A stretch of DNA of 64,000 nucleotides from an uncultured delta proteobacterium (GTDB lineage: Bacteria > Desulfobacterota > Desulfomonilia > UBA1062): NCBI GenBank assembly GCA_963785235.1, contig CAWAUM010000013.1, positions 1-64,000 on the forward strand, given 5' to 3'. The position numbers were made by a program, and so were the translations under genes. Below are positions 51,069 through 62,667 of the stretch, piece by piece; the first letter of the stretch is position 1; each line of letters starts with the position of its first letter. The notes beneath the pieces are model-generated. The model saw only the letters and a program-made list of their open reading frames with translations. It had not been told where the DNA came from and searched no databases.

Positions 51069-52619
51069 TCACACCATCTTCGGCCAGGAGGCCAGCAGAC
51101 GTCTGCTCATGCCCCGCTCGCCGTTGCTGCCGCGGGCAAGGGCAAGGGCCTTTATCAGCTCGGTCCTGGTGTCACGCGGGTCAATGACCTTGTCGATGAG
51201 GTTCAGACCGGCTGCCTCCCAGGGCTCGGCCTTGCGGATCATCTCCTTCATGAATGCGGTTTTCATCTCGTCGGCCCCGGGTGCGTCAGAGAAGTTCTGG
51301 CCAAAGGCGGCATTGATGGCCACATCTGCGGCCATGAATGAGATATCTGCAGTGGGCCAGGCGATAATGGAATCCGAGAGCTTCCCGCCCGCCATGTTGT
51401 GATGGGCCATGCCGTAGGACTTGCGGGTTATGAGGCTCACCACAGGCACAGTGGTGAGCTGGAGCGCCTTGATCATGGACATGATCTTCAAGGGCATCTT
51501 CCGCTCTTCTGCTTCCCTGCCCACGAGGAAACCCGGCGTGTCGTGGATGAAGATCATGGGGATGTTGAACGAATCGCACAGGCAGATGAAGGCGATGGCC
51601 TTGTCGCAGGCCCCCGGGCCCATGGCGCCCGCAGTCACCAGAGGGTTGTTGGCGAGCACGCCTACACTGTATCCGTCAAGGCGCGCCAGGCACGTGACCA
51701 GGCTGCCGTCGTAATAGGGCTTGAGCTCCAGGATGCTGTCACAATCGAAGATGAGGTTCAGTGCGTTGTGGATGTCATAGAGGGTCTTGGGGTCTTCCGG
51801 GACCGCCTCGAAGATGGATTCGATCCTTGCCCCTGAAGGATCGTCGCATGGCTTTATGGGCGGAAGCTCGTGGGCATTGCACGGCAGATAACCCAGCAGG
51901 CGGCGTATCAGCCAGAGGCACTCCTCTTCGTTCTCGGCGAACAGGTCCACCTGGCCGGTCACACGGGCATGGACCTCCCAGCCGCCGAGCTCCTCGGCTG
52001 TCGAGTTCTCGCCCGTGGCCACCTCGATGATGCGGGGCGATGTGACCGCCATGATGGCGCCCTTCACCTGTATGACCACATCCGAGATGGAGGCCTCCCA
52101 GGTGGGGCCGCCATAGCATTCGCCCATGATGGACACGATGAACGGCACCTCGCGGTTGTGGGCATCCACGATCTCCATGGCCTTCATGATGCCTGTGGCC
52201 CCCATGGTGTCGGGGATGCGCGCCCCGCCGCCGTCGCCGAGATGGACGCAGGGGAAGCCTTTGGTTGCGGCGTAGTGCAGGTTTTTAATCGCCTTGATGA
52301 CCCCTATGCGCCCGCCTGCCCCGGACATGACCGTTACATCGTCGCCTGAAACGTATACGGTGCGGTTGTCTATCAGGCCGAATCCGCACACCTTCCCGTC
52401 AGCCGGAGTCTTTGCGGCGGCCTCGGGAAGATCACTGTGGCAGAGCACGCCATACTCGTCAAAGGACCCCTTATCCAGGAGCAGGTCGATCCGCTCGCGG
52501 ACTGTAAGCCTTCCCTTGTCGTGCTGCTTCCTTACCTTCTTTTCGCCTCCCATGGCCTTGTTCTTTTCCATGCGGGAGGCAAGCTCGGCTATTTTATATG
52601 GATCGACTGGTTGGCTCAT
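51069..52619 (-). CDS. acyl-CoA carboxylase carboxyltransferase subunit
   Basis: GG.KK...QHDKGRLTVRERI, PADG.V.G, GGGARIP, ELGG..VH, DTPGFLVG, RKSYG. Confidence 0.9.
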   Translation of the reverse strand: MSQPVDPYKIAELASRMEKNKAMGGEKKVRKQHDKGRLTVRERIDLLLDKGSFDEYGVLCHSDLPEAAAKTPADGKVCGFGLIDNRTVYVSGDDVTVMSGAGGRIGVIKAIKNLHYAATKGFPCVHLGDGGGARIPDTMGATGIMKAMEIVDAHNREVPFIVSIMGECYGGPTWEASISDVVIQVKGAIMAVTSPRIIEVATGENSTAEELGGWEVHARVTGQVDLFAENEEECLWLIRRLLGYLPCNAHELPPIKPCDDPSGARIESIFEAVPEDPKTLYDIHNALNLIFDCDSILELKPYYDGSLVTCLARLDGYSVGVLANNPLVTAGAMGPGACDKAIAFICLCDSFNIPMIFIHDTPGFLVGREAEERKMPLKIMSMIKALQLTTVPVVSLITRKSYGMAHHNMAGGKLSDSIIAWPTADISFMAADVAINAAFGQNFSDAPGADEMKTAFMKEMIRKAEPWEAAGLNLIDKVIDPRDTRTELIKALALARGSNGERGMSRRLLASWPKMV

Positions 52620-54584
52620 GGGTTGTTCTCCGTATCAATTGCTATGAGTATGGACCCCATCTTCACAAAATCACCCTGCTTCACGAAGATCTCCTTCACC
52701 ACGCCTTGCTCTACAGCAGTAATGATGTTTTCCATCTTCATGGACTCGATGATGATAAGGTCCTGGCCTTTGTTCACTCTCTGGCCCTGTTGCACCGATA
52801 CCAGTGCCACCTTGCCGTCCATGGGCGCCTCGCAGGCCCCCTTTTTATGGTGCTGGAACTCCATTGAATGGAACCGCGACAGATAGGTGAGCTGATGGTG
52901 CCCGAGGCTCAAGGAATGGAGGAACACCGTCTCCTTGTCAAGGGCATAGGAGAACTTGAGCTGCCTGCCATTGATGATGAGGGACATGGAATCAGAGTCC
53001 TTCCCGGCGACAAAGACGTCGTAGGTGTCTTTGTGGATGATAATTGTAAAGCTGTCTCCATCCTTTTTTCTGAAGTTGGCGCAATACTGAATTCCATGCA
53101 TCAGAAAACCTGCAAATTTCAAGGTGTGGTAGCCTGCCTGCCACCCCAGTTCCCGATGGCCTTCCTCGTGGTCGTTGAACCGGGCCACAATGGCGGCCAC
53201 GACGAGCACCCTCGCCTCTTCCTCCCTCAAGGCAGGTCTTTCCATGACAGGGGAGTCCTTGTCGAAAATAGTCGGTCTTGATCTGGCCCTTATGAAATGC
53301 CTCGCCCGTCACAAGGCGCGACAGGAAATCGATGTTGGTCGCCACGCCCAGTGCAGCGGTCTCATGAAGGGCCCGGTTCATCTTCCTGATGGCGTTTGCC
53401 CGGGAATCGGCGTGTGCGATCACCTTTGCCAGGAGGGGGTCGAAATCAATGGTTATCCGCGATGAGGTGGCCACACCACTGTCGGTCCGGGCACTTTTGG
53501 CAGCCTTCCACAGAATCAGATTCCCTGCAGAAGGGACAAAGTTATTATCCGGGTCTTCGGCATAGACCCTGCATTCCATGGCATGGCCGTTTATGGAGAG
53601 ATCCGCCTGGCTCACAGGCAGCGGCTCGCCTTCGGCAATGGCTATCTGCATCTCCACCAGGTCGAGGCCGGTTACGGCCTCGGTCACCGGGTGCTCCACC
53701 TGAAGCCTGGTGTTCATCTCCAGGAAGAAAAACTTTCCGTCATCGTCCAGCACGAACTCCACGGTGCCTGCGTTCGTATAGTTCACGGCTTTTGCTATGG
53801 CGATTGCCGCCTTTCCCATCTTCTTTCTCAAGGGCTCCGTCATGGCAGGAGACGGGGATTCCTCTATGAGCTTCTGATGCCTGCGCTGGACCGAGCACTC
53901 CCGCTCAGGGCAGTGGATGATCTTGCCGTGCAGGTCACCCAGGACCTGGAATTCGATATGCCGTACAGGGCTCAGGTATTTCTCAATGAGCAGGCTGTCA
54001 ATGCCGTACACGGCCAGGGACTTCTTTCGTGCAGCACGCAGCGAACCTTCCAGGAGCGAAGGGGCATCCACCCTGAAGATGCCGATGCCGCCACCGCCTG
54101 CCGAGGCCTTGATGAGGAGCGGATATCCTATGCTTAAAGCCCTTGCGGTGAGTTCCTCCATGGATTCCCCGCCCACCCTGAATCCCGGGATAACGGGAAC
54201 GCCTATCTTCTCGCAGAGTTCACGGGCTGCGATCTTGGAGCCCATAATCCTGATGGATTCCGGCGTTGGTCCGATAAACGTTATGCCCTCTGCGCAGCAG
54301 CGTGAAGCGAATTCAGGATTCTCCGAGAGGAGCCCGTAACCCGGATGGATTGCATCCGCACCGGCATCATGTGCCGCCTGGATGATCCTGTCCTGGTCAA
54401 GGTAGGCCCCGATCCCTGCCTCGCCCAGACAGATCGCCTCGTCCGCCATGTTCATGAACACGCTGCCCCGGTCAATCTGTGAATACACGGCAACGGTTGC
54501 AATCCCCAGTTTCCGGCAAGTCTTTATCACCCTGCAGGCTATTTCTCCGCGATTTGCGATCAACAGGCACTTTATCTTTTTCAT
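52616..54584 (-). CDS. acyl-CoA carboxylase biotin carboxylase + biotin carrier subunit (frameshift near 53260)
   Basis: LIANRGEIA, IHPGYGLLSEN, RECSVQRRHQK, EMNTRLQVEHPVTE; downstream frame APMDGKV...ESMKME. Confidence 0.9.
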
Positions 54585-56034: not shown

Positions 56035-57905
56035 ATGCACATAACAAAATCCCTATCAAATCTAATTTCCAGACTTCAAAACTCAAAGTCAATATCCGGG
56101 ATTAACACATCCGAATCTAGAAAGATGTCTTTCCATGTCCTCATACAGGAGAATTCGTTTATCTTTTCTTTTATTTTCACAGGTATGTTGCTTTCTATAA
56201 TTTTATCGATTCTTCCTGTACATTATGAAACTAACGACGAATTCAGAATGATAACCATTCTGAGTGGAAATGGCGGATTCCCTGCTAGCCCCTATGTCCC
56301 ATATCTCAACCCAATACTAAGTTATGTTTTACATATTCTTTACAGAGTAAAACCATACTTTCCATGGTTTGGTGTATTCTTCTATGTCGTTTACTACTTA
56401 GGTTGGACTTTGATCTTGAGTGTCATATTCAGAACGAATGACAGATACAGTTTTATTTTAACAATTCCTATCCTTTTTTATTTTTTCTTTTTTCATTCTT
56501 CATATGTAAGTTTTACCTCGGCTTCTCTCTTTATGTCTTTCGGGGTTTTTCTCTGCACAATCGAATATTTCATCAGGAATGAAGCCCCGATAAAGAATAT
56601 CAGGATTTATTTTATATTCCTGGCTGTTTGTTTCTATCTTTCGTTCCTTCTTCGATGGGAATTGGTCCTCTATTCGCTTCTCCTTTTCTTACCCGCCGTC
56701 GTTTTCATAAAGAAAGGACGGTAATAAAAGTTCTCCCTATTCTTCTCCTGCTAGGCTTAGTGATATGTTTGAATATAGCATTTAACCACTTTATTAATTT
56801 ATCTCATCAGACATATCATGAATTCGACAAGCTGAGAATTGAGTTTCATGATACTCACAGAGGAGATTTTCATGATCGAATCACACCATATGCTCTCCAG
56901 AAAGCAGGATGGACATATAAAGATTACATAGCTTTCAGAGGCCTTTGGTTTATGCATGATAATTATACCTTCAACACAACGAATTTGAAAACATTTCTCA
57001 TAGAGAATAATCCTCGAAAAAACAGCTAAAGCTTATTTAGACAATATCATCCGCCAAGTAATAAAAAGTTATAATCGAAATAAGAATAAATCTATCTTAT
57101 TAGTAGTCTCTTTATTATCAATTCTTATTTATAGATCAACATACCTATTGCGACTCGATAAAGTTGATTTGTTAAAAATTGCAGTCTCTATAGGGACAAT
57201 TATATTAAGCGTACTGTTCTTTATGTATTATCGATTTATGCCGAGGGTTTATGGCCCACTTTATGTCTATTTGATCAGCATGTCGTATTTATTATTCAGC
57301 ATTGGAAAAGGCTCCGAACATAAAGTTATCCAGAATAACTGGATGAAATATCTTACTATTATTGTTGCAGGATCTTTAATGGCATATGCTATACTTATTG
57401 TACGTCAAGAAGTTGTTACTAATGTTCATGATCTTGACCAGTCCGCGAAATTCAGGACCGCAATCAATCAAGCTTTAACCGCATTGAAACTATTAATACT
57501 GCGTCACATCCTTTTATCATACTAATATGTGGTATTCCCTATGGCCTTCGCACTGACTTCATCCATCCTTTAATGGAATATAGAGATTTCCCCCGTATGA
57601 GAATTTTCCCAAATGGATGGTCAATATATTCGCCATATCATAAGATGGCACTAAAAAATCTTCACCTCCGCGATGGTCATGATTTTCTTAAGTGGCTTGT
57701 TGACCGAAAAGATGTGCTCTTAATGATCAATGCTTTTAATATAACCCAGGCAAATCAAGTTAACAAAATTGTATTTTTATTGAAATCTTACTACCTCAGC
57801 CATATATATCCCGGTATGAAACTGGATTTCATTCCTGTCTATGATTTTAGAAACAAGGAAGGATTGGGTCTAGTCTTTTTCCGATTAAAATCCGACCACG
57901 ATTGA
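56035..57905 (+). CDS. AT-rich polytopic membrane protein, possibly GT-C-like (split by several frameshifts)
   Basis: Consecutive hydrophobic ORFs 56035..56724, 56628..57029, 57148..57525, 57573..57905; YETNDE acidic motif after the first TM. Confidence 0.5.
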
Positions 57906-57951
57906 TAAAACATCATGTAGATCATATTTTGTGTTTCATTAAGAACTGAGA

Positions 57952-58020
57952 CTAATCACTATCCAGCACCCGCCGGACCGTCTCGGCCAGGATCTTCAAA
58001 CTTGCCGGCTTCATGATGCA
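57952..58020 (-). pseudogene. remnant of a hybrid-kinase receiver C-terminus
   Basis: IMKPASLKILAETVRRVLDSD*, similar to the end of the 63041 gene (MKPIEMKVLAKTIRRVLD). Confidence 0.6.
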
Positions 58021-58517
58021 TTCCATTAGGGGTCACTATAGAAGATTGATCCACAGCAGCTGGTTTCCAATCTATAATGAATTGGGTAAGGTTACCAGAA
58101 TTGCTATTCACACGCTTGACATCACTGAATTAAAACAGACCTTTTTCAAAAGCAAGTTGTGACAAAATAATAAATCTCCATGATATATAATAAATAAGTT
58201 GCTGATCTTAAGATCGCAAACTGTAGAGTTCCTGCCGAACTCAATATTTTGCCGCTACTGAATATTTGTAATAATAACCATCACTATTTGACTTCCCCCT
58301 CACGCTTTTCATTCATTCAAACTAAAAGCCTGTGCTTGTTCTAAAAATTAAGTTTGCTTTACCCGGATGAGTCTTTATATAGAGCCAGGTCTCATCATGA
58401 AGCCTTGCCCGTAACAATTTGATGATTATAATACTTTTGACTACTGGTTGCAAACCGACGGTCTGCACTTGGTAGGGCGAATATTGGGGTTACCCCCCCC
58501 ATGGGAGATCTTGTCAG

Positions 58518-59726
58518 ATGAAGTATATCCATGCTTTTAATAACTTGGTGGAGAAGAAAAAGATCTATCCTGATTTCCCCGTTATTGACGGCGGGGCAAG
58601 CCCTGAAGTTGTTGTGAATGGAAAAAGGTTATTGATGTTCTCTTCCAATAATTACCTGGGTCTTACATCCCATCCCAGAATAAGGAGCGGCCCATGAGGC
58701 TATTGAAAAATACGGGACAGGTTCGGGGGGTTCCCGCCTCCTATCCGGAAACCTCAAAATCCATGAAGAGGCAGAACGAAAAATTGCCGCCTTTAAGGGC
58801 GGAGAGGCTGCCATTATCTTCCCCACGGGTTATTCAGCGAATGTCGGTGCCATCTCAGGGTTCCTCGACCTGCTGAAGATTTCTCCCCGTTATTTCTTCA
58901 TGAGAAGATGCATGGTTTTTTCCGACGACTTGAATCATGCAAGCATTATTGACGGGTGCAGATTGAGCGGGGCAAAGACCGTGGTGTATCCTCACAAGGA
59001 TATGGATGTTCTGGAAGCAAAGCTGAAACGCCATCGCGCCGGCGCAAGCTTATCATAACCGACGGTGTCTTCAGCATGGATGGTGATATCGCCCCCCTTG
59101 ATCAGATAGCATACCTGGCGAAAAAATATGATGCGGTCACCATGGTGGATGAAGCCCATGCCACAGGCATTCTCGGGACTCATGGACACGGTACTATTGA
59201 GCATTTCCACCCGAAGCCCTTGAAGGACATTGCCATCATAATGGGGACTTTCAGCAAATCCGTCGGAGCCGTGGGCGGGTATGTCGTAGGATCACATGAC
59301 CTGATACATTATCTCAGGGTAGCTTCCCGGTCGTATATGTTCTCGGCAGCCATGCCCCCGGCCACTGCTGCAACCATTATTGCCGCAATCGATCTCATGG
59401 AAAGCGACCCGACCTTAAGGACGAAGTTATGGGAGAATACCAACCATTTGAAGGAAGGGTTTAACGATCTGGGATTCAATACCTTTTCCAGCGAGACCCA
59501 GATCATCCCCATACTGATCGGCAAAGACGATAAAGGGGTGGAATTCTCCCGGCGCCTGGTTGACTACGGGATATACGGGCCATGCGTCAGATGGCCTGCG
59601 GTAACAAGAAACCAGTCCAGGATCAGATTTACCGTAATGGCCTCCCACACCAGGGAGCAGATCGATTATCTTCTTGATTGCTGCAGGTCTTTAGGGAGTA
59701 AGATGAACGTGTCTATGGGGAAATGA
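58518..59726 (+). CDS. alpha-oxoamine synthase, serine palmitoyltransferase-like (frameshifts near 58685 and 59035)
   Basis: IYPDFP.I...EVVVNGK..LMFSSNNYLGL, GSGGSR.L.G, NHASIIDG, DGVFSMDGD, DEAH, GTFSKSVG. Confidence 0.8.
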
Positions 59727-60550
59727 AAATGAAGGATTTTCTTGATAAAAACGTCTATATTACCGGCGGATCTACCGGTATCGGTCTTTCCACTGCCAAG
59801 CTCCTGGCGGCAGCGGGGGCCAACGTCATCATCTCCGCCCGGACAAAAGAAAAACTTGAAACAGCCATGGAAGAGATCGAGAGCCGCCGCATCTTACAGG
59901 CGCAGCGTTTCGCCTTCCGTCAACTCGACGTGGCGGACAATACAGAAGTGAACATTGTCATGACTGAGGCTGTTCAAAACTTCGGCATCCCGGACCTCCT
60001 CATTAATAATGCCGGGCGGGCCCTGCCACGCTGTTTCGAGGAAGTCACCTTCGCGCAGTTCGACGAGACCATGAAGACCAACCTCTACGGCAGCTGGAAT
60101 ACCACCACGGTCCTCATCCCGTACATGAAGCCCGGGGGCGGAGCAATCGTCAATGTGTCCTCCCTGTGCGGCTTCATGGGGGTCTTCGGCTATACGGACT
60201 ATTGTGCCTCGAAATTCGGCATCATCGGCCTCTCGGAGGCGCTCAGGCAGGAACTGCGGCGCTACGATATCACGGTTTCCGTACTCTGCCCTCCCGATAC
60301 CGACACACCGGGATACGCCACAGAAAACATCTGTAAACCTGAGGTGACCAGGGCGCTTTCGGCCGCAGCCAAGATCATGCAGCCGGATGAAGTTGCCAGG
60401 GAGCTTGATCGAGGGATCAAACGCAAGACCTTCATCATTATCCCCGGTGTGGACGGAAAATTCATCTATTTCATGAAGCGGCACTTCCCCTTCATCGTGG
60501 AGCTGATTATGCGTCGGGGTATCTGCAAGGTACAGAAGGGGAGCGTATAG
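59723..60550 (+). CDS. 3-ketodihydrosphingosine reductase-like SDR
   Basis: ITGGSTGIG, GVFGYTDYCASKF, PPDTDTPGY..EN..KP..T..LS (KDSR/TSC10-like signature); overlaps the SPT-like stop. Confidence 0.8.
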   Translation: MKMKDFLDKNVYITGGSTGIGLSTAKLLAAAGANVIISARTKEKLETAMEEIESRRILQAQRFAFRQLDVADNTEVNIVMTEAVQNFGIPDLLINNAGRALPRCFEEVTFAQFDETMKTNLYGSWNTTTVLIPYMKPGGGAIVNVSSLCGFMGVFGYTDYCASKFGIIGLSEALRQELRRYDITVSVLCPPDTDTPGYATENICKPEVTRALSAAAKIMQPDEVARELDRGIKRKTFIIIPGVDGKFIYFMKRHFPFIVELIMRRGICKVQKGSV

Positions 60551-60561
60551 CCAGTTCAACA

Positions 60562-61488
60562 ATGAAGGCATGTAATCCTGAAAAGTTACTGAGTCTTGAA
60601 GAAGGTCTCACCATCGGCATGGCCGTGCTGTGCAATCTCATCATCCTTCTTTTCATGCACCTGGGGCAGGCACAAGACATCTTTGTGCTGAACATGCTCA
60701 TCACGGCGGTCATCCTCCTGGTAGCTTGTGTCCACCGGCGTTTTCCCCACACATGGCTGCAGTTTTTCCGGGACTGGTATGTGGTTTCTTTTCTGATCAT
60801 CATCTATCTGGAGAATCGCACACTCATCCCTCTCATCAACCCCCATGAACTGGACAGCCTCGTCATGGCCGTGGACCGGTTTCTTTTTGGCGGGCACGAC
60901 CCCACAGTCCTCATGGAAAGAATAATGTACCCTGCCCTTTCGGAAATACTGCAGATATCCTATGCGAGCTTCTATTTTCTTCCGCTCTCACTGTGTGTGA
61001 TCCTCTATTCCCTCAGGGAGGCCAGGGATGACTTTCATGTTGTGGCATCCACCATATTCATGGGATTCTATCTCTCCTACATCGGGTATTACTTCACCCC
61101 GGTCCTCGGGCCGAGATTCACCATGGAACACCTGCAAAGCGTTCCCCTGAGAGGATTGTGGACCTTTGACTTTCTCAGAAACCTACTGGCACAGACTGAA
61201 GGAAGGATGTACGACTGCATGCCGAGCGGACACGCCCTCGTCTCTGTTCTCACCGTGCTTCTGTCCTGGCGATACGCCAAGAGATTTTTTCCTGTTGCCC
61301 TTGCCTGGACAGTTCTCCTGAGCTTCTCAACGGTGTACCTGCGCTATCACTATGTGAGCGACCTCATTGCAGGCATGGCGCTGGGTGTGCTGGTGTTCCA
61401 GTTCGGCCCCGGCCTCGCGGAGGCAACCATGCGCGGCACAGAGAAAGAACAGGGGATACCTGAATCGATGCAGCTCAGGAAGGAGTAA
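60562..61488 (+). CDS. PAP2-superfamily membrane protein (AUR1/IPC-synthase-like)
   Basis: Multiple TMs, P.LGPRF, DCMPSGH, STVYLRYHYVSD. Confidence 0.82.
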   Translation: MKACNPEKLLSLEEGLTIGMAVLCNLIILLFMHLGQAQDIFVLNMLITAVILLVACVHRRFPHTWLQFFRDWYVVSFLIIIYLENRTLIPLINPHELDSLVMAVDRFLFGGHDPTVLMERIMYPALSEILQISYASFYFLPLSLCVILYSLREARDDFHVVASTIFMGFYLSYIGYYFTPVLGPRFTMEHLQSVPLRGLWTFDFLRNLLAQTEGRMYDCMPSGHALVSVLTVLLSWRYAKRFFPVALAWTVLLSFSTVYLRYHYVSDLIAGMALGVLVFQFGPGLAEATMRGTEKEQGIPESMQLRKE

Positions 61489-61539
61489 CCGGGGTGTTCC
61501 GGTTAGACGAAAGGCCCCTGGTAGCTCCGGCACGTCTTA

Positions 61540-62667
61540 TCAGGGAATAGGTCTTTCATAGATTCGATAGGTTTTGTAGAGCTCAGGGGTGAACGGTTTC
61601 AGTTCATGTATCATCTTTGTATTGGTCTCAACAATCAGCGAGCAATCCGACTCCCAGACATCCGAGAGGAGACTCTGTTCAATAATCTTCAGGTAGAAAA
61701 TCTCATCGATGTGCTGCCCCTGATATTCCGGGAGCACCCCCATGATGACGGTTCTCACCCTCTTGGTTTTTTTTGCTTCTCTCATGAACCTTAAGAGCCG
61801 CCACGGGTAGAGCCTTCCGTTTAAGATCCGTAGTGCCGGATTGACGTCCGGTATGGTGATAACGAAGCCTATGGTCTTTCCATCCTTCTCCGCAAATATG
61901 GTAAATTCAGGGGTGAGTAACATCTTCACTTCGGCAAAGAACATCTCCGTCTGTTTTTCTGTCAGCGGAAGATGGCCCCAGTTACCCTCCCAGGCGGCAT
62001 TGAAGATGTGCTGCACATCTTTCACCCTTTTTGCCAGGTCCCTCTTGTCGAGGTTTTTGAATACCGTGTCCGTTGTGGAGAGAAGGCCCTTTCTCACTTC
62101 ATCCAGATAGGGTACATGTTGGGCGTAATTGACGCGCTTCACCAGGAAACAGTGCCAGTCGATGCATTTTACAAACCCGCATGCCTCGGCAAGATCCTTA
62201 TAATAAGGGGCAAAGTGGAAAAGACCCACTGATGGGATGTTCCCCTCCCCTTCCACCTCGAAACCAACCGAGTCGTAGATGGCGAAGCTCTGCGGGCCGT
62301 TCATAATCTTCTTGCCCTTGTGCTTGAGCCAGGAAGATGCGGTATCGAACAGTGCACGGGCAACCTCCGGGTCATTGACGGCCTCGAAGAACCCGAAGAA
62401 CCCCGTGCCGTTGTCATATTTGTTTTCATAAAGATGATTCACGTGGGCTGTGATACGGCCGACAAGCCTGCTGTTTTTATATGCCAGAAAAAACTCTGCC
62501 TCACCTATCTCAAAAAAGTATCCTTTTTCCCTGTCGAAAAAATTTTTCTGGTCACTGATGATAGGTGGGATCCATGCCGGATCATTCTCGTAGATCCGGG
62601 CTGTCCATGGGAACATCATGAAGTCTTTCATCATGCCCTTAGTATCAGCGCGCCTCACCTCAACCAT
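61540..62667 (-). CDS. tandem-GNAT N-acyltransferase, bacterial ceramide synthase (bCerS)-like
   Basis: F..FPW..IY..DP.WIPP, FLAY....VGRI.A, GFFGFFE...D.EVA.AL, GP, N.AW..NWG..P, PD.N, GVLPEY, YRIY. Confidence 0.72.
   Translation of the reverse strand: MVEVRRADTKGMMKDFMMFPWTARIYENDPAWIPPIISDQKNFFDREKGYFFEIGEAEFFLAYKNSRLVGRITAHVNHLYENKYDNGTGFFGFFEAVNDPEVARALFDTASSWLKHKGKKIMNGPQSFAIYDSVGFEVEGEGNIPSVGLFHFAPYYKDLAEACGFVKCIDWHCFLVKRVNYAQHVPYLDEVRKGLLSTTDTVFKNLDKRDLAKRVKDVQHIFNAAWEGNWGHLPLTEKQTEMFFAEVKMLLTPEFTIFAEKDGKTIGFVITIPDVNPALRILNGRLYPWRLLRFMREAKKTKRVRTVIMGVLPEYQGQHIDEIFYLKIIEQSLLSDVWESDCSLIVETNTKMIHELKPFTPELYKTYRIYERPIP

Follow-up and report, generated by a model that had tools for sequence, protein, structure and literature searches.

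A possible sphingolipid-type locus in an uncultured Desulfomonilia bacterium joins a conserved PAP2–GNAT pair to a sporadic alpha-oxoamine synthase–reductase cassette

Does an uncultured delta proteobacterium of the Desulfomonilia (lineage UBA1062) encode a sphingolipid pathway, and do the genes that suggest one belong together? We addressed these questions at four genes within 58.5–62.7 kb of the window, the whole 64,000-nt stretch of contig CAWAUM010000013.1 (assembly GCA_963785235.1) that was analysed. In the handles used below, G-numbers are the genomes compared, C-numbers are contigs, and L-numbers are loci examined; the window is G000:C13:1-64000, with G000 being its genome. Genes for an alpha-oxoamine synthase (AOS), a short-chain dehydrogenase/reductase (SDR), and a PAP2_3 enzyme lie on the forward strand and face a tandem-GNAT gene on the reverse strand. 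All four are present in the order and orientation given by the original prediction, which had read them as a coupled operon for a serine palmitoyltransferase (Spt), a eukaryote-like KDSR, and an AUR1-like enzyme, facing a bacterial ceramide synthase (bCerS). The genes are as follows.

58518-59726, + strand: AOS of the candidate phyla radiation (CPR)-type clan (PF00155; trees), read in three frame pieces; identity to the intact G003 orthologue 92-96%
59723-60550, + strand: classical SDR, 275 aa, of the type labelled 3-dehydrosphinganine reductase (PF00106, 173 bits; JGI names of homologues), with a 95% identical paralogue on C8
60562-61488, + strand: polytopic PAP2_3 membrane enzyme of AUR1/sphingomyelin-synthase type, 308 aa (PF14378, 80.4 bits; PF14360, 31.9 bits; PSGH and HYxxD; orthologues in 12 relatives)
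61540-62667, - strand: putative tandem-GNAT N-acyltransferase of the bCerS family, 375 aa, convergent with PAP2 (homology, gene context, predicted fold)

We found that the PAP2 and GNAT genes are a conserved unit, that the AOS and SDR genes are a separate, sporadic cassette, and that the four genes together are not a conserved unit. PAP2 orthologues occurred in 13 of the 41 genomes searched, G000 included, and each of the 12 relatives that carry PAP2 has the GNAT gene adjacent and convergent (G011 is counted here on its last 40 GNAT codons only, at a contig edge). None of these 12 had an AOS or SDR gene beside the pair. The flanks of the pair varied, and in the five relatives compared nothing was common beyond the pair itself. 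At E ≤ 1e-30, 4 of 24 same-family relatives had an AOS, whatever its kind; at this threshold none was detected in nine of the 12 PAP2–GNAT genomes (G001, G005, G006, G007, G009, G010, G011, G015, and G024), which are 71–99% complete, four of them 97–99%. SDR homologues (45–67% identity) were found in all 41 genomes, and their loci in 14 relatives had no AOS, PAP2, or GNAT gene nearby and no common partner. Because the pair is kept without an AOS or SDR gene beside it, and SDR homologues occur without an AOS gene nearby, we treat the four genes as two modules; the predicted cluster did not hold as a conserved unit. Our preferred reading is that the locus is a composite of these modules that would encode a plausible sphingolipid-type pathway, and that it is partly an accident of rearrangement or assembly. 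We hold this reading tentatively, at slightly less than even confidence.

The connection of the conserved pair to sphingolipids runs through the GNAT. Pfam gave the 375-aa protein only a weak match to PF00583 (24.4 bits). By tblastn, it aligned at 23–32% identity over ~350–375 aa with the GNATs of L068, L074, L104, L112, L124, L171, and L192, all seven of which directly follow AOS genes of Spt type. The Spt proteins of L068 and L104 scored 666 bits on NF047600 (cut-off 640), and at the other loci Spt was the best match by >100 bits. Several of these loci then carry a CerR-like epimerase-family gene, and their arrangements include PAP2_3–Spt–GNAT–epimerase (L068), Spt–GNAT–epimerase–MIPS–PgpA (L171), Spt–KdsR-like–GNAT (L124, whose SDR scored 258 bits on NF049977), and a Spt–GNAT cluster with a fatty-acid hydroxylase downstream (L192). 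Among 160 AOS-centred loci classed by hidden Markov models (HMMs) built in this analysis, a GNAT was present at 7 of 19 Spt-type loci and at none of the 24 BioF-type, 111 Kbl-type, or 6 CPR-type loci, with a GNAT HMM that included the seven Spt-adjacent GNATs, themselves first identified in tblastn searches with the window protein. The resulting contrast (7/19 vs. 0/141) gave a Fisher value of 1.1e-7, to be read with the loci being related rather than independent.

From a 16-row alignment, AlphaFold predicted a soluble tandem-GNAT fold for the GNAT (pLDDT 88, pTM 0.87), and the best PDB matches of the model were tandem GNATs (2WPW, 7Q3A, 5KGA, and MshD; TM 0.5–0.66, with 0.55–0.66 for matches such as 2WPW and 7Q3A). 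Together with the full-length homology, gene context with Spt supports placing the GNAT in the bCerS family, as had been predicted from its resemblance. We had considered the Alphaproteobacteria as a bridge to the bCerS of Caulobacter and dropped them, as the sample held no usable Spt cluster: a GNAT homologue was found in 15 of 201 genomes, and the Spt-alpha model at E ≤ 1e-150 found a match in none of the 201. ESM Atlas look-ups returned generic GNAT and SDR clusters, one of which, at rank 21, was automatically named 3-dehydrosphinganine reductase.

The partner of the GNAT also fits an AUR1-like enzyme as predicted, at the level of family. The PAP2 protein exceeded the cut-offs of both PF14378 (80.4 vs. 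27) and PF14360, the sphingomyelin-synthase C-terminal domain (31.9 vs. 27). Its PSGH and HYxxD motifs, whose meaning we assume, were invariant or nearly so in an alignment of nine orthologues and the L068 protein, with the L069 row disregarded as out of frame. The first gene of the Spt cluster L068 is a PAP2_3 gene (90.7 bits), and at L069 the Spt-type AOS is followed by a second gene of PAP2_3-like type. The family match is not specific, as PF14378 was also found in 11 of 14 control genomes, including Escherichia coli, and the protein gave weak NCBIfam matches to SepP and LpxE. Named homologues came from Desulfomonilia, Syntrophales, “Deltaproteobacteria,” and metagenome-assembled genomes (MAGs) of Spirochaetota. 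Most carried the source names “membrane-associated phospholipid phosphatase” or “phosphatase PAP2 family protein,” and one NCBI record, 58% identical, was named inositol phosphorylceramide synthase.

Where does the pair sit when the cassette is not beside it? In what would be the ancestral layout, seen in G003, G011, G001, and C8 of the window genome, the pair closes an operon of a polyketide synthase (PKS), a phosphopantetheinyl transferase (PPTase), a 281-aa protein, a FemAB-like protein, an ABC exporter, and a B12 radical-SAM enzyme. Read in reverse, C8 carries a truncated AOS gene and the SDR gene, a convergent 1413-aa BcrAD_BadFG/DUF2229 activase-like gene, and the gene for a PKS of 2570 aa, followed by the PPTase, the 281-aa protein, the FemAB-like protein, an ABC ATPase, an ABC-2 permease, and the B12 radical-SAM enzyme. 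The PKS is of the iterative type I (NMO/ER-KS-AT-ACP-KR-DH; L231, G000:C8, 6433-14142, - strand; PPTase gene next). The same island, in the same order, occurs in G003 and G001, and the cassette lies within ~20 kb of the PAP2–GNAT pair in G003 and on C8. We link the locus to PKS sphingolipids because a PKS lies in the same island and sphingolipids made with a PKS and an AOS have been published.

Some further observations concern this island. PKS homologues at 59–65% identity were found in all 16 sister-family genomes searched and in 4 of 15 genomes of the window genus. In the sister-family genome G033, a bCerS-like GNAT gene (27% identity) is divergent from the same type of PKS (L232, G033:C22, 10395-19898). 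An AOS near the PKS in G033 was not counted as cassette-like; the next open reading frames (ORFs) look MoxR-/VWA-like, judged from their first residues only. The G001 island with its GNAT gene (L234, G001:C193, 3454-6279) has a 270-nt gap at the expected PAP2 position, and that genome has a second, more distant GNAT–PAP2 pair on another contig (L042, G001:C47).

Under the composite reading, the first module, found across the genus, would pair a bCerS-family tandem-GNAT N-acyltransferase with a convergent PAP2_3 membrane phosphotransferase of AUR1/sphingomyelin-synthase type, and in the second a CPR-type AOS would be coupled translationally to an SDR of the type labelled KDSR. Reduction of the 2-amino-3-keto product by this SDR would yield a long-chain base of 2-amino-3-hydroxy type. 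Provided that the cell has an intact AOS, the route would run from condensation through 3-keto reduction and N-acylation to transfer of a phospho head group onto a ceramide-like product. We infer the substrates, the order of steps, and the head group here, while the families, the pattern of conservation, and both the breaks and the junctions were directly observed.

The AOS is the least canonical part of this scheme. It had been called Spt-like on short motifs, and the strings GTFSKSVG, IYPDF, and PPDTDTPGYATENICKPEVT are indeed contained in the window translations. The intact G003 orthologue, used for all AOS HMM scores, nevertheless fell below every Spt cut-off (NF047600, 410 vs. 640; NF047599, 341 vs. 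500; NF047603, 273 vs. 670), and the window pieces added together reached ~381 bits on NF047600. The orthologue passed the BioF cut-off marginally (TIGR00858, 429.5 vs. 426.45) and fell below both Kbl-type cut-offs (TIGR01825, 444 vs. 535; NF005394, 398.5 vs. 460). In the PDB, the orthologue matched a Sphingobacterium SPT best (312 bits), followed by a Thermus AOS/Kbl enzyme (305 bits). Apart from three metagenome proteins that are nearly identical, the closest relatives of the AOS were 56–63% identical, and the named ones came from Patescibacteria-type lineages, Omnitrophota, and a Pacearchaeote, all annotated as BioF (also as glycine C-acetyltransferase).

Two quick maximum-likelihood trees, made without alpha-, beta-, and gamma-proteobacterial Spt, ALAS, CqsA, and SgaB, resolved three clans: a CPR-type clan with the query (94–97 SH-aLRT), Spt (100), and BioF+Kbl (87–93). 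These clans meet at a short internal branch, the rooting differed between runs, and the link between the AOS and Spt was unstable. On sequence grounds we place the AOS in the third, CPR-type clan, as neither a demonstrated Spt nor a demonstrated BioF/Kbl enzyme. The phylogeny that had been proposed as a check therefore sided with neither outcome: the AOS did not group with BioF/Kbl, but neither did it fall in the Spt clade. One AOS of G002, 50% identical to it, belongs to a bioD-bioF-bioA operon; this protein is a genuine BioF and falls with BioF in the tree. We found no BioD or true BioA in G000, and thus the window AOS would have no biotin role here.

Other members of this part of the tree drew our attention in their own right. 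The CPR-type AOS genes of L047, L146, and L147 are followed by histidine kinases with a seven-transmembrane N-terminal region, and at L047 and L146 the next ORF looks tRNA-synthetase-like from its first residues only. Two near-identical AOS copies of G002 (L227 and L228; G002:C4) are, together with the MAG sequence L049, sister to the CPR-type clan.

The SDR only partly matched the expectation of a eukaryote-like KDSR. Many homologues at 58–75% identity carry the JGI label “3-dehydrosphinganine reductase,” a label assigned automatically, and the protein contains PPDTDTPG..EN..KP, a motif we take to be typical of KDSR. However, the solved TSC10 structure (8JAT) was a middling match at 81.5 bits, ~42nd of the 60 PDB matches listed and below many FabG-type reductases, and the Bacteroides-type KdsR model NF049977 was not among the 25 best NCBIfam families. 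A genome-wide check for CerR found no close homologue: the best matches in G000 to four Spt-cluster epimerases were generic epimerases only 22–28% identical.

How, then, did the two modules come to adjoin? The region contains further features that bear on this question and on the state of the AOS gene.

58681-58686, + strand: first AOS break, two single bases missing (a public contig has a C after 58681 and an A after 58685)
59041-59045, + strand: second AOS break, one base missing (seen against the C8 copy; G003 stays in a single frame)
60551-60561, + strand: SDR/PAP2 junction, where the duplicated AOS–SDR segment meets PAP2 (comparison of C13, C8, G011, and G003)
57911-58234, no strand given: C-terminal remnants of a response regulator and of a PAS sensor, marking the left portion of the stretch duplicated on C8 (blastn, 95% to C8 26256-26371 and 20287-20474; intact genes on C8)
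58405-58432, + strand: promoter-like site ~85 nt 5' of the AOS start (10 of 12 consensus positions matched; a consensus match only)

The window from 54.7 to 60.56 kb is a diverged duplicate (95–97% identity, several indels) of C8:18.6–32 kb, and homology to C8 stops 1–3 nt before the PAP2 ATG. Since intact copies of the response-regulator and PAS-sensor genes lie on C8, the remnants mark this part of the window as a segmental duplication with internal deletions. The AOS stop codon and the SDR start codon share the bases ATGA, and an 11-nt spacer follows the SDR stop before PAP2 begins. That overlap agrees with the coupled operon of the original prediction, but the AOS is not one open frame, the SDR/PAP2 join is uncorroborated, and the four genes are not conserved together.

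The join was seen on this contig only. At its end, C8 runs from the stop codon of the radical-SAM gene through a spacer of 38 nt to “ATGA,” which is the radical-SAM/PAP2 junction of G011 base for base and nearly that of G003. The assembly thus gives a single PAP2 gene two competing neighbours on its upstream side, a conflict that could reflect two strains, a duplicated PAP2–GNAT pair, or a path choice by the assembler. The sole public contig reaching the 3' end of the SDR gene stops aligning at 60553, as C8-type sequence would, and after the junction there is no Shine-Dalgarno-like motif close to the PAP2 ATG. Within the duplicated part of the window, an AT-rich stretch at 56035-57905 (+ strand; 34–35% GC vs. 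~52%) holds a membrane-protein-like gene in four frame pieces, to which Pfam gave no match and which the paralogous C8 segment lacks.

As assembled, the AOS is divided among three stop-to-stop pieces (58476-58697, 58684-59058, and 58953-59726). In a 474-nt public sediment-run contig with six mismatches, two additional bases (C after 58681, A after 58685) bring the gene back into frame, and the C8 paralogue and same-genus G003 orthologue each have one extra base near 59043. The bases missing at the two sites total three, and the frame of the first piece is also that of the last. We consider the breaks to be probable assembly errors, given a frameshift in rpoC, a survey of frameshifts in the genome, and a low ratio of non-synonymous to synonymous substitution rates (dN/dS) in the middle piece. 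The rpoC gene is frameshifted right after KKKKLS/a lysine run (G000:C3:149300-149900, outside the window), with rpoB whole. When 125 long ORFs of relatives were compared with G000, 24 frameshift-like junction rows appeared over no more than 145 kb of aligned coding sequence; these collapse to ~18 distinct places, with compensating pairs, as in the AOS, in five genes. Across 335 codons compared with G003, dN/dS came to 0.078 for the middle piece, which would be untranslated as assembled, and to 0.115 for the last piece; the AOS thus shows purifying selection even where it reads out of frame.

We used this orthologue-based survey in place of a genome-wide count of overlapping long ORFs, which did not set G000 apart from other assemblies. 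Among public sequencing runs, the best shared only 0.41 of the locus words and no RNA run was among the matches; none of the public contigs found spans the second AOS break or the SDR/PAP2 junction. Elsewhere in the window, the gene for a biotin carboxylase/biotinyl-carrier alpha-subunit (52616-54584, - strand) is also split into overlapping frames of 530 aa and 209 aa, with a frameshift near 53200-53250.

The damage to the cassette itself points the other way from assembly error. All three copies are damaged, each differently: C13 has the AOS frameshifts, C8 has a ~680-nt 5' deletion that removes the 5' third of the AOS and the promoter, and G003 has lost the SDR except for its last 58 codons while keeping an intact AOS. 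This is one of several results that weigh against a working composite pathway, along with the scarcity of AOS genes in genomes that have the pair, the pair without AOS or SDR neighbours in all 12 relatives, and the SDR homologues without pathway partners. The six CPR-type AOS loci other than the window had neither a GNAT nor a PAP2 neighbour, and the 1.8-kb distance between GNAT and CPR-type AOS exists on this contig only. G001 has the PKS island with a GNAT and no AOS. The Spt and BioF scores, the unstable tree position, and the standing of the SDR against TSC10 and KdsR count on the same side, as do the conflict of the SDR/PAP2 join with the end of C8 and the public contig that stops at 60553.

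These points would suit a reading in which the modules are unrelated: the PAP2–GNAT pair and PKS island would act on an amine lipid not made by an AOS, and the cassette would be a decaying passenger, placed by rearrangement or by the path of the assembler. The nine AOS-less genomes of 12, the G001 island without a cassette, the damage to three of three copies, the radical-SAM/PAP2 junction kept at the C8 end, and the want of a close Shine-Dalgarno-like motif at PAP2 after the new junction all speak for it. We nevertheless think it rather unlikely, as the GNAT family is tied to Spt elsewhere (7/19 vs. 0/141), purifying selection extends into the out-of-frame AOS piece, the assembly is error-prone (rpoC and the frameshift survey), and the cassette lies within ~20 kb of the pair both in G003 and on C8. 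It is distinctly unlikely, in our estimation, that the lineage builds a ceramide-like phospholipid without a canonical Spt, its backbone supplied by other chemistry, and that the cassette is a laterally acquired add-on for a second, sphingoid backbone. That reading builds on the pair being retained in AOS-less genomes and standing, in one sub-lineage, at the end of the iterative PKS operon.

Could either module instead serve an ordinary function? The AOS and SDR might act on a small amino-ketone, either as a pair like Kbl and threonine dehydrogenase (interconverting threonine with glycine and acetyl-CoA) or in a BioF-like role. The highest NCBIfam score of the intact orthologue was for the BioF/Kbl subfamily TIGR01825 (444 bits), it passed the BioF cut-off, its named close homologues are all annotated as BioF or glycine C-acetyltransferase, and it shares 50% identity with the genuine BioF of G002. 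Yet G000 yielded no BioD or BioA, the AOS lay outside the BioF+Kbl clan in both trees, the TIGR01825 score was under its cut-off of 535, and the SDR family is labelled KDSR rather than threonine dehydrogenase, so that this explanation appears improbable. We regard as more doubtful still a reading in which PAP2 is an ordinary lipid phosphatase (acting, e.g., on undecaprenyl-PP or lipid A), the GNAT is an unrelated acetyltransferase, and their pairing is uninformative about sphingolipids. The phosphatase names of most homologues, the presence of PF14378 in most control genomes (11 of 14, E. coli among them), and the weak SepP and LpxE matches are what such an enzyme would lead one to expect, but convergent pairing was kept in 12 of 12 relatives despite changing flanks, the GNAT family is linked to Spt, PAP2_3 occurs in the Spt cluster L068 with a PAP2_3-like gene beside the Spt-type AOS of L069, and the PF14360 cut-off was passed.

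How does the composite reading compare with known systems? The bacterial ceramide pathway of Caulobacter type consists of Spt, bCerS, and CerR, whose genes are clustered also in Bacteroidota and other phyla. The window resembles it in having a ~375-aa tandem-GNAT homologous to Spt-adjacent GNATs with an AOS and a ketoreductase nearby. It differs in that the AOS lies outside the Spt clade, a search for a CerR-like epimerase found none, the reductase belongs to the classical SDRs, and the genes are not a conserved unit. The SDR likewise resembles eukaryotic KDSR/TSC10 in being a classical SDR with the JGI label on its homologues and the PPDTDTPG..EN..KP motif, while 8JAT scored only 81.5 bits and the SDR family occurs in 41 of 41 genomes, mostly without an AOS nearby.

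The order of ceramide-synthesis steps is debated (PMC11087976, PMC11324152). The original prediction had presented reduction before acylation, combined with an AUR1-like enzyme, as a hybrid route, and this was already published for Bacteroides: BT_1522 of Bacteroides thetaiotaomicron is a characterised AUR1 homologue and PI-dihydroceramide synthase (PMC9246714), and BT_0972 is its 3-ketosphinganine reductase (a reference entry in PMC12134224). These enzymes share with the window a PAP2-superfamily head-group transferase for ceramide and a reduce-first SDR, both of them putative in the window. Unlike them, the window SDR lacks NF049977 among its best 25 families and no inositol-lipid cluster lies beside PAP2; a MIPS-like match in G000 is partial, 35% identical, and elsewhere in the genome.

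The closest parallel for the PKS island is SgaAB of Pseudomonas fluorescens MYb115, for which PMC12134224 reports PKS-derived sphingolipids and proposes a phospho-sphingolipid product. By that description, both systems have an iterative type I PKS and an AOS in one region. In G000, however, the two are parted by the opposite-strand 1413-aa activase-like gene, and the island is without an AOS in G001. Sphingolipid potential in anaerobes, including Desulfobacterota, is noted in PMC11334938, in which bacterial sphingolipid genes are used to predict producers in dozens of phyla. Among the few papers that our literature search returned, we found none tying this bacterial class to sphingolipids, and one credited its ceramides to Bacteroidetes.

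The kind of system is thus known, and what is unusual is the clan of the AOS, the link to a PKS island, and the presence of the PAP2–GNAT pair in genomes without an AOS. For the prediction of sphingolipid producers, this exposes two pitfalls: a bCerS/head-group pair can be widespread where Spt is absent, and an AOS beside such genes may belong to a clan whose substrate is unassigned. If the pair does make a ceramide-like lipid without an AOS, the backbone would come from a source unknown to date. If, on the other hand, the CPR-type AOS makes long-chain bases, then many “BioF” annotations in the CPR would need re-examination.

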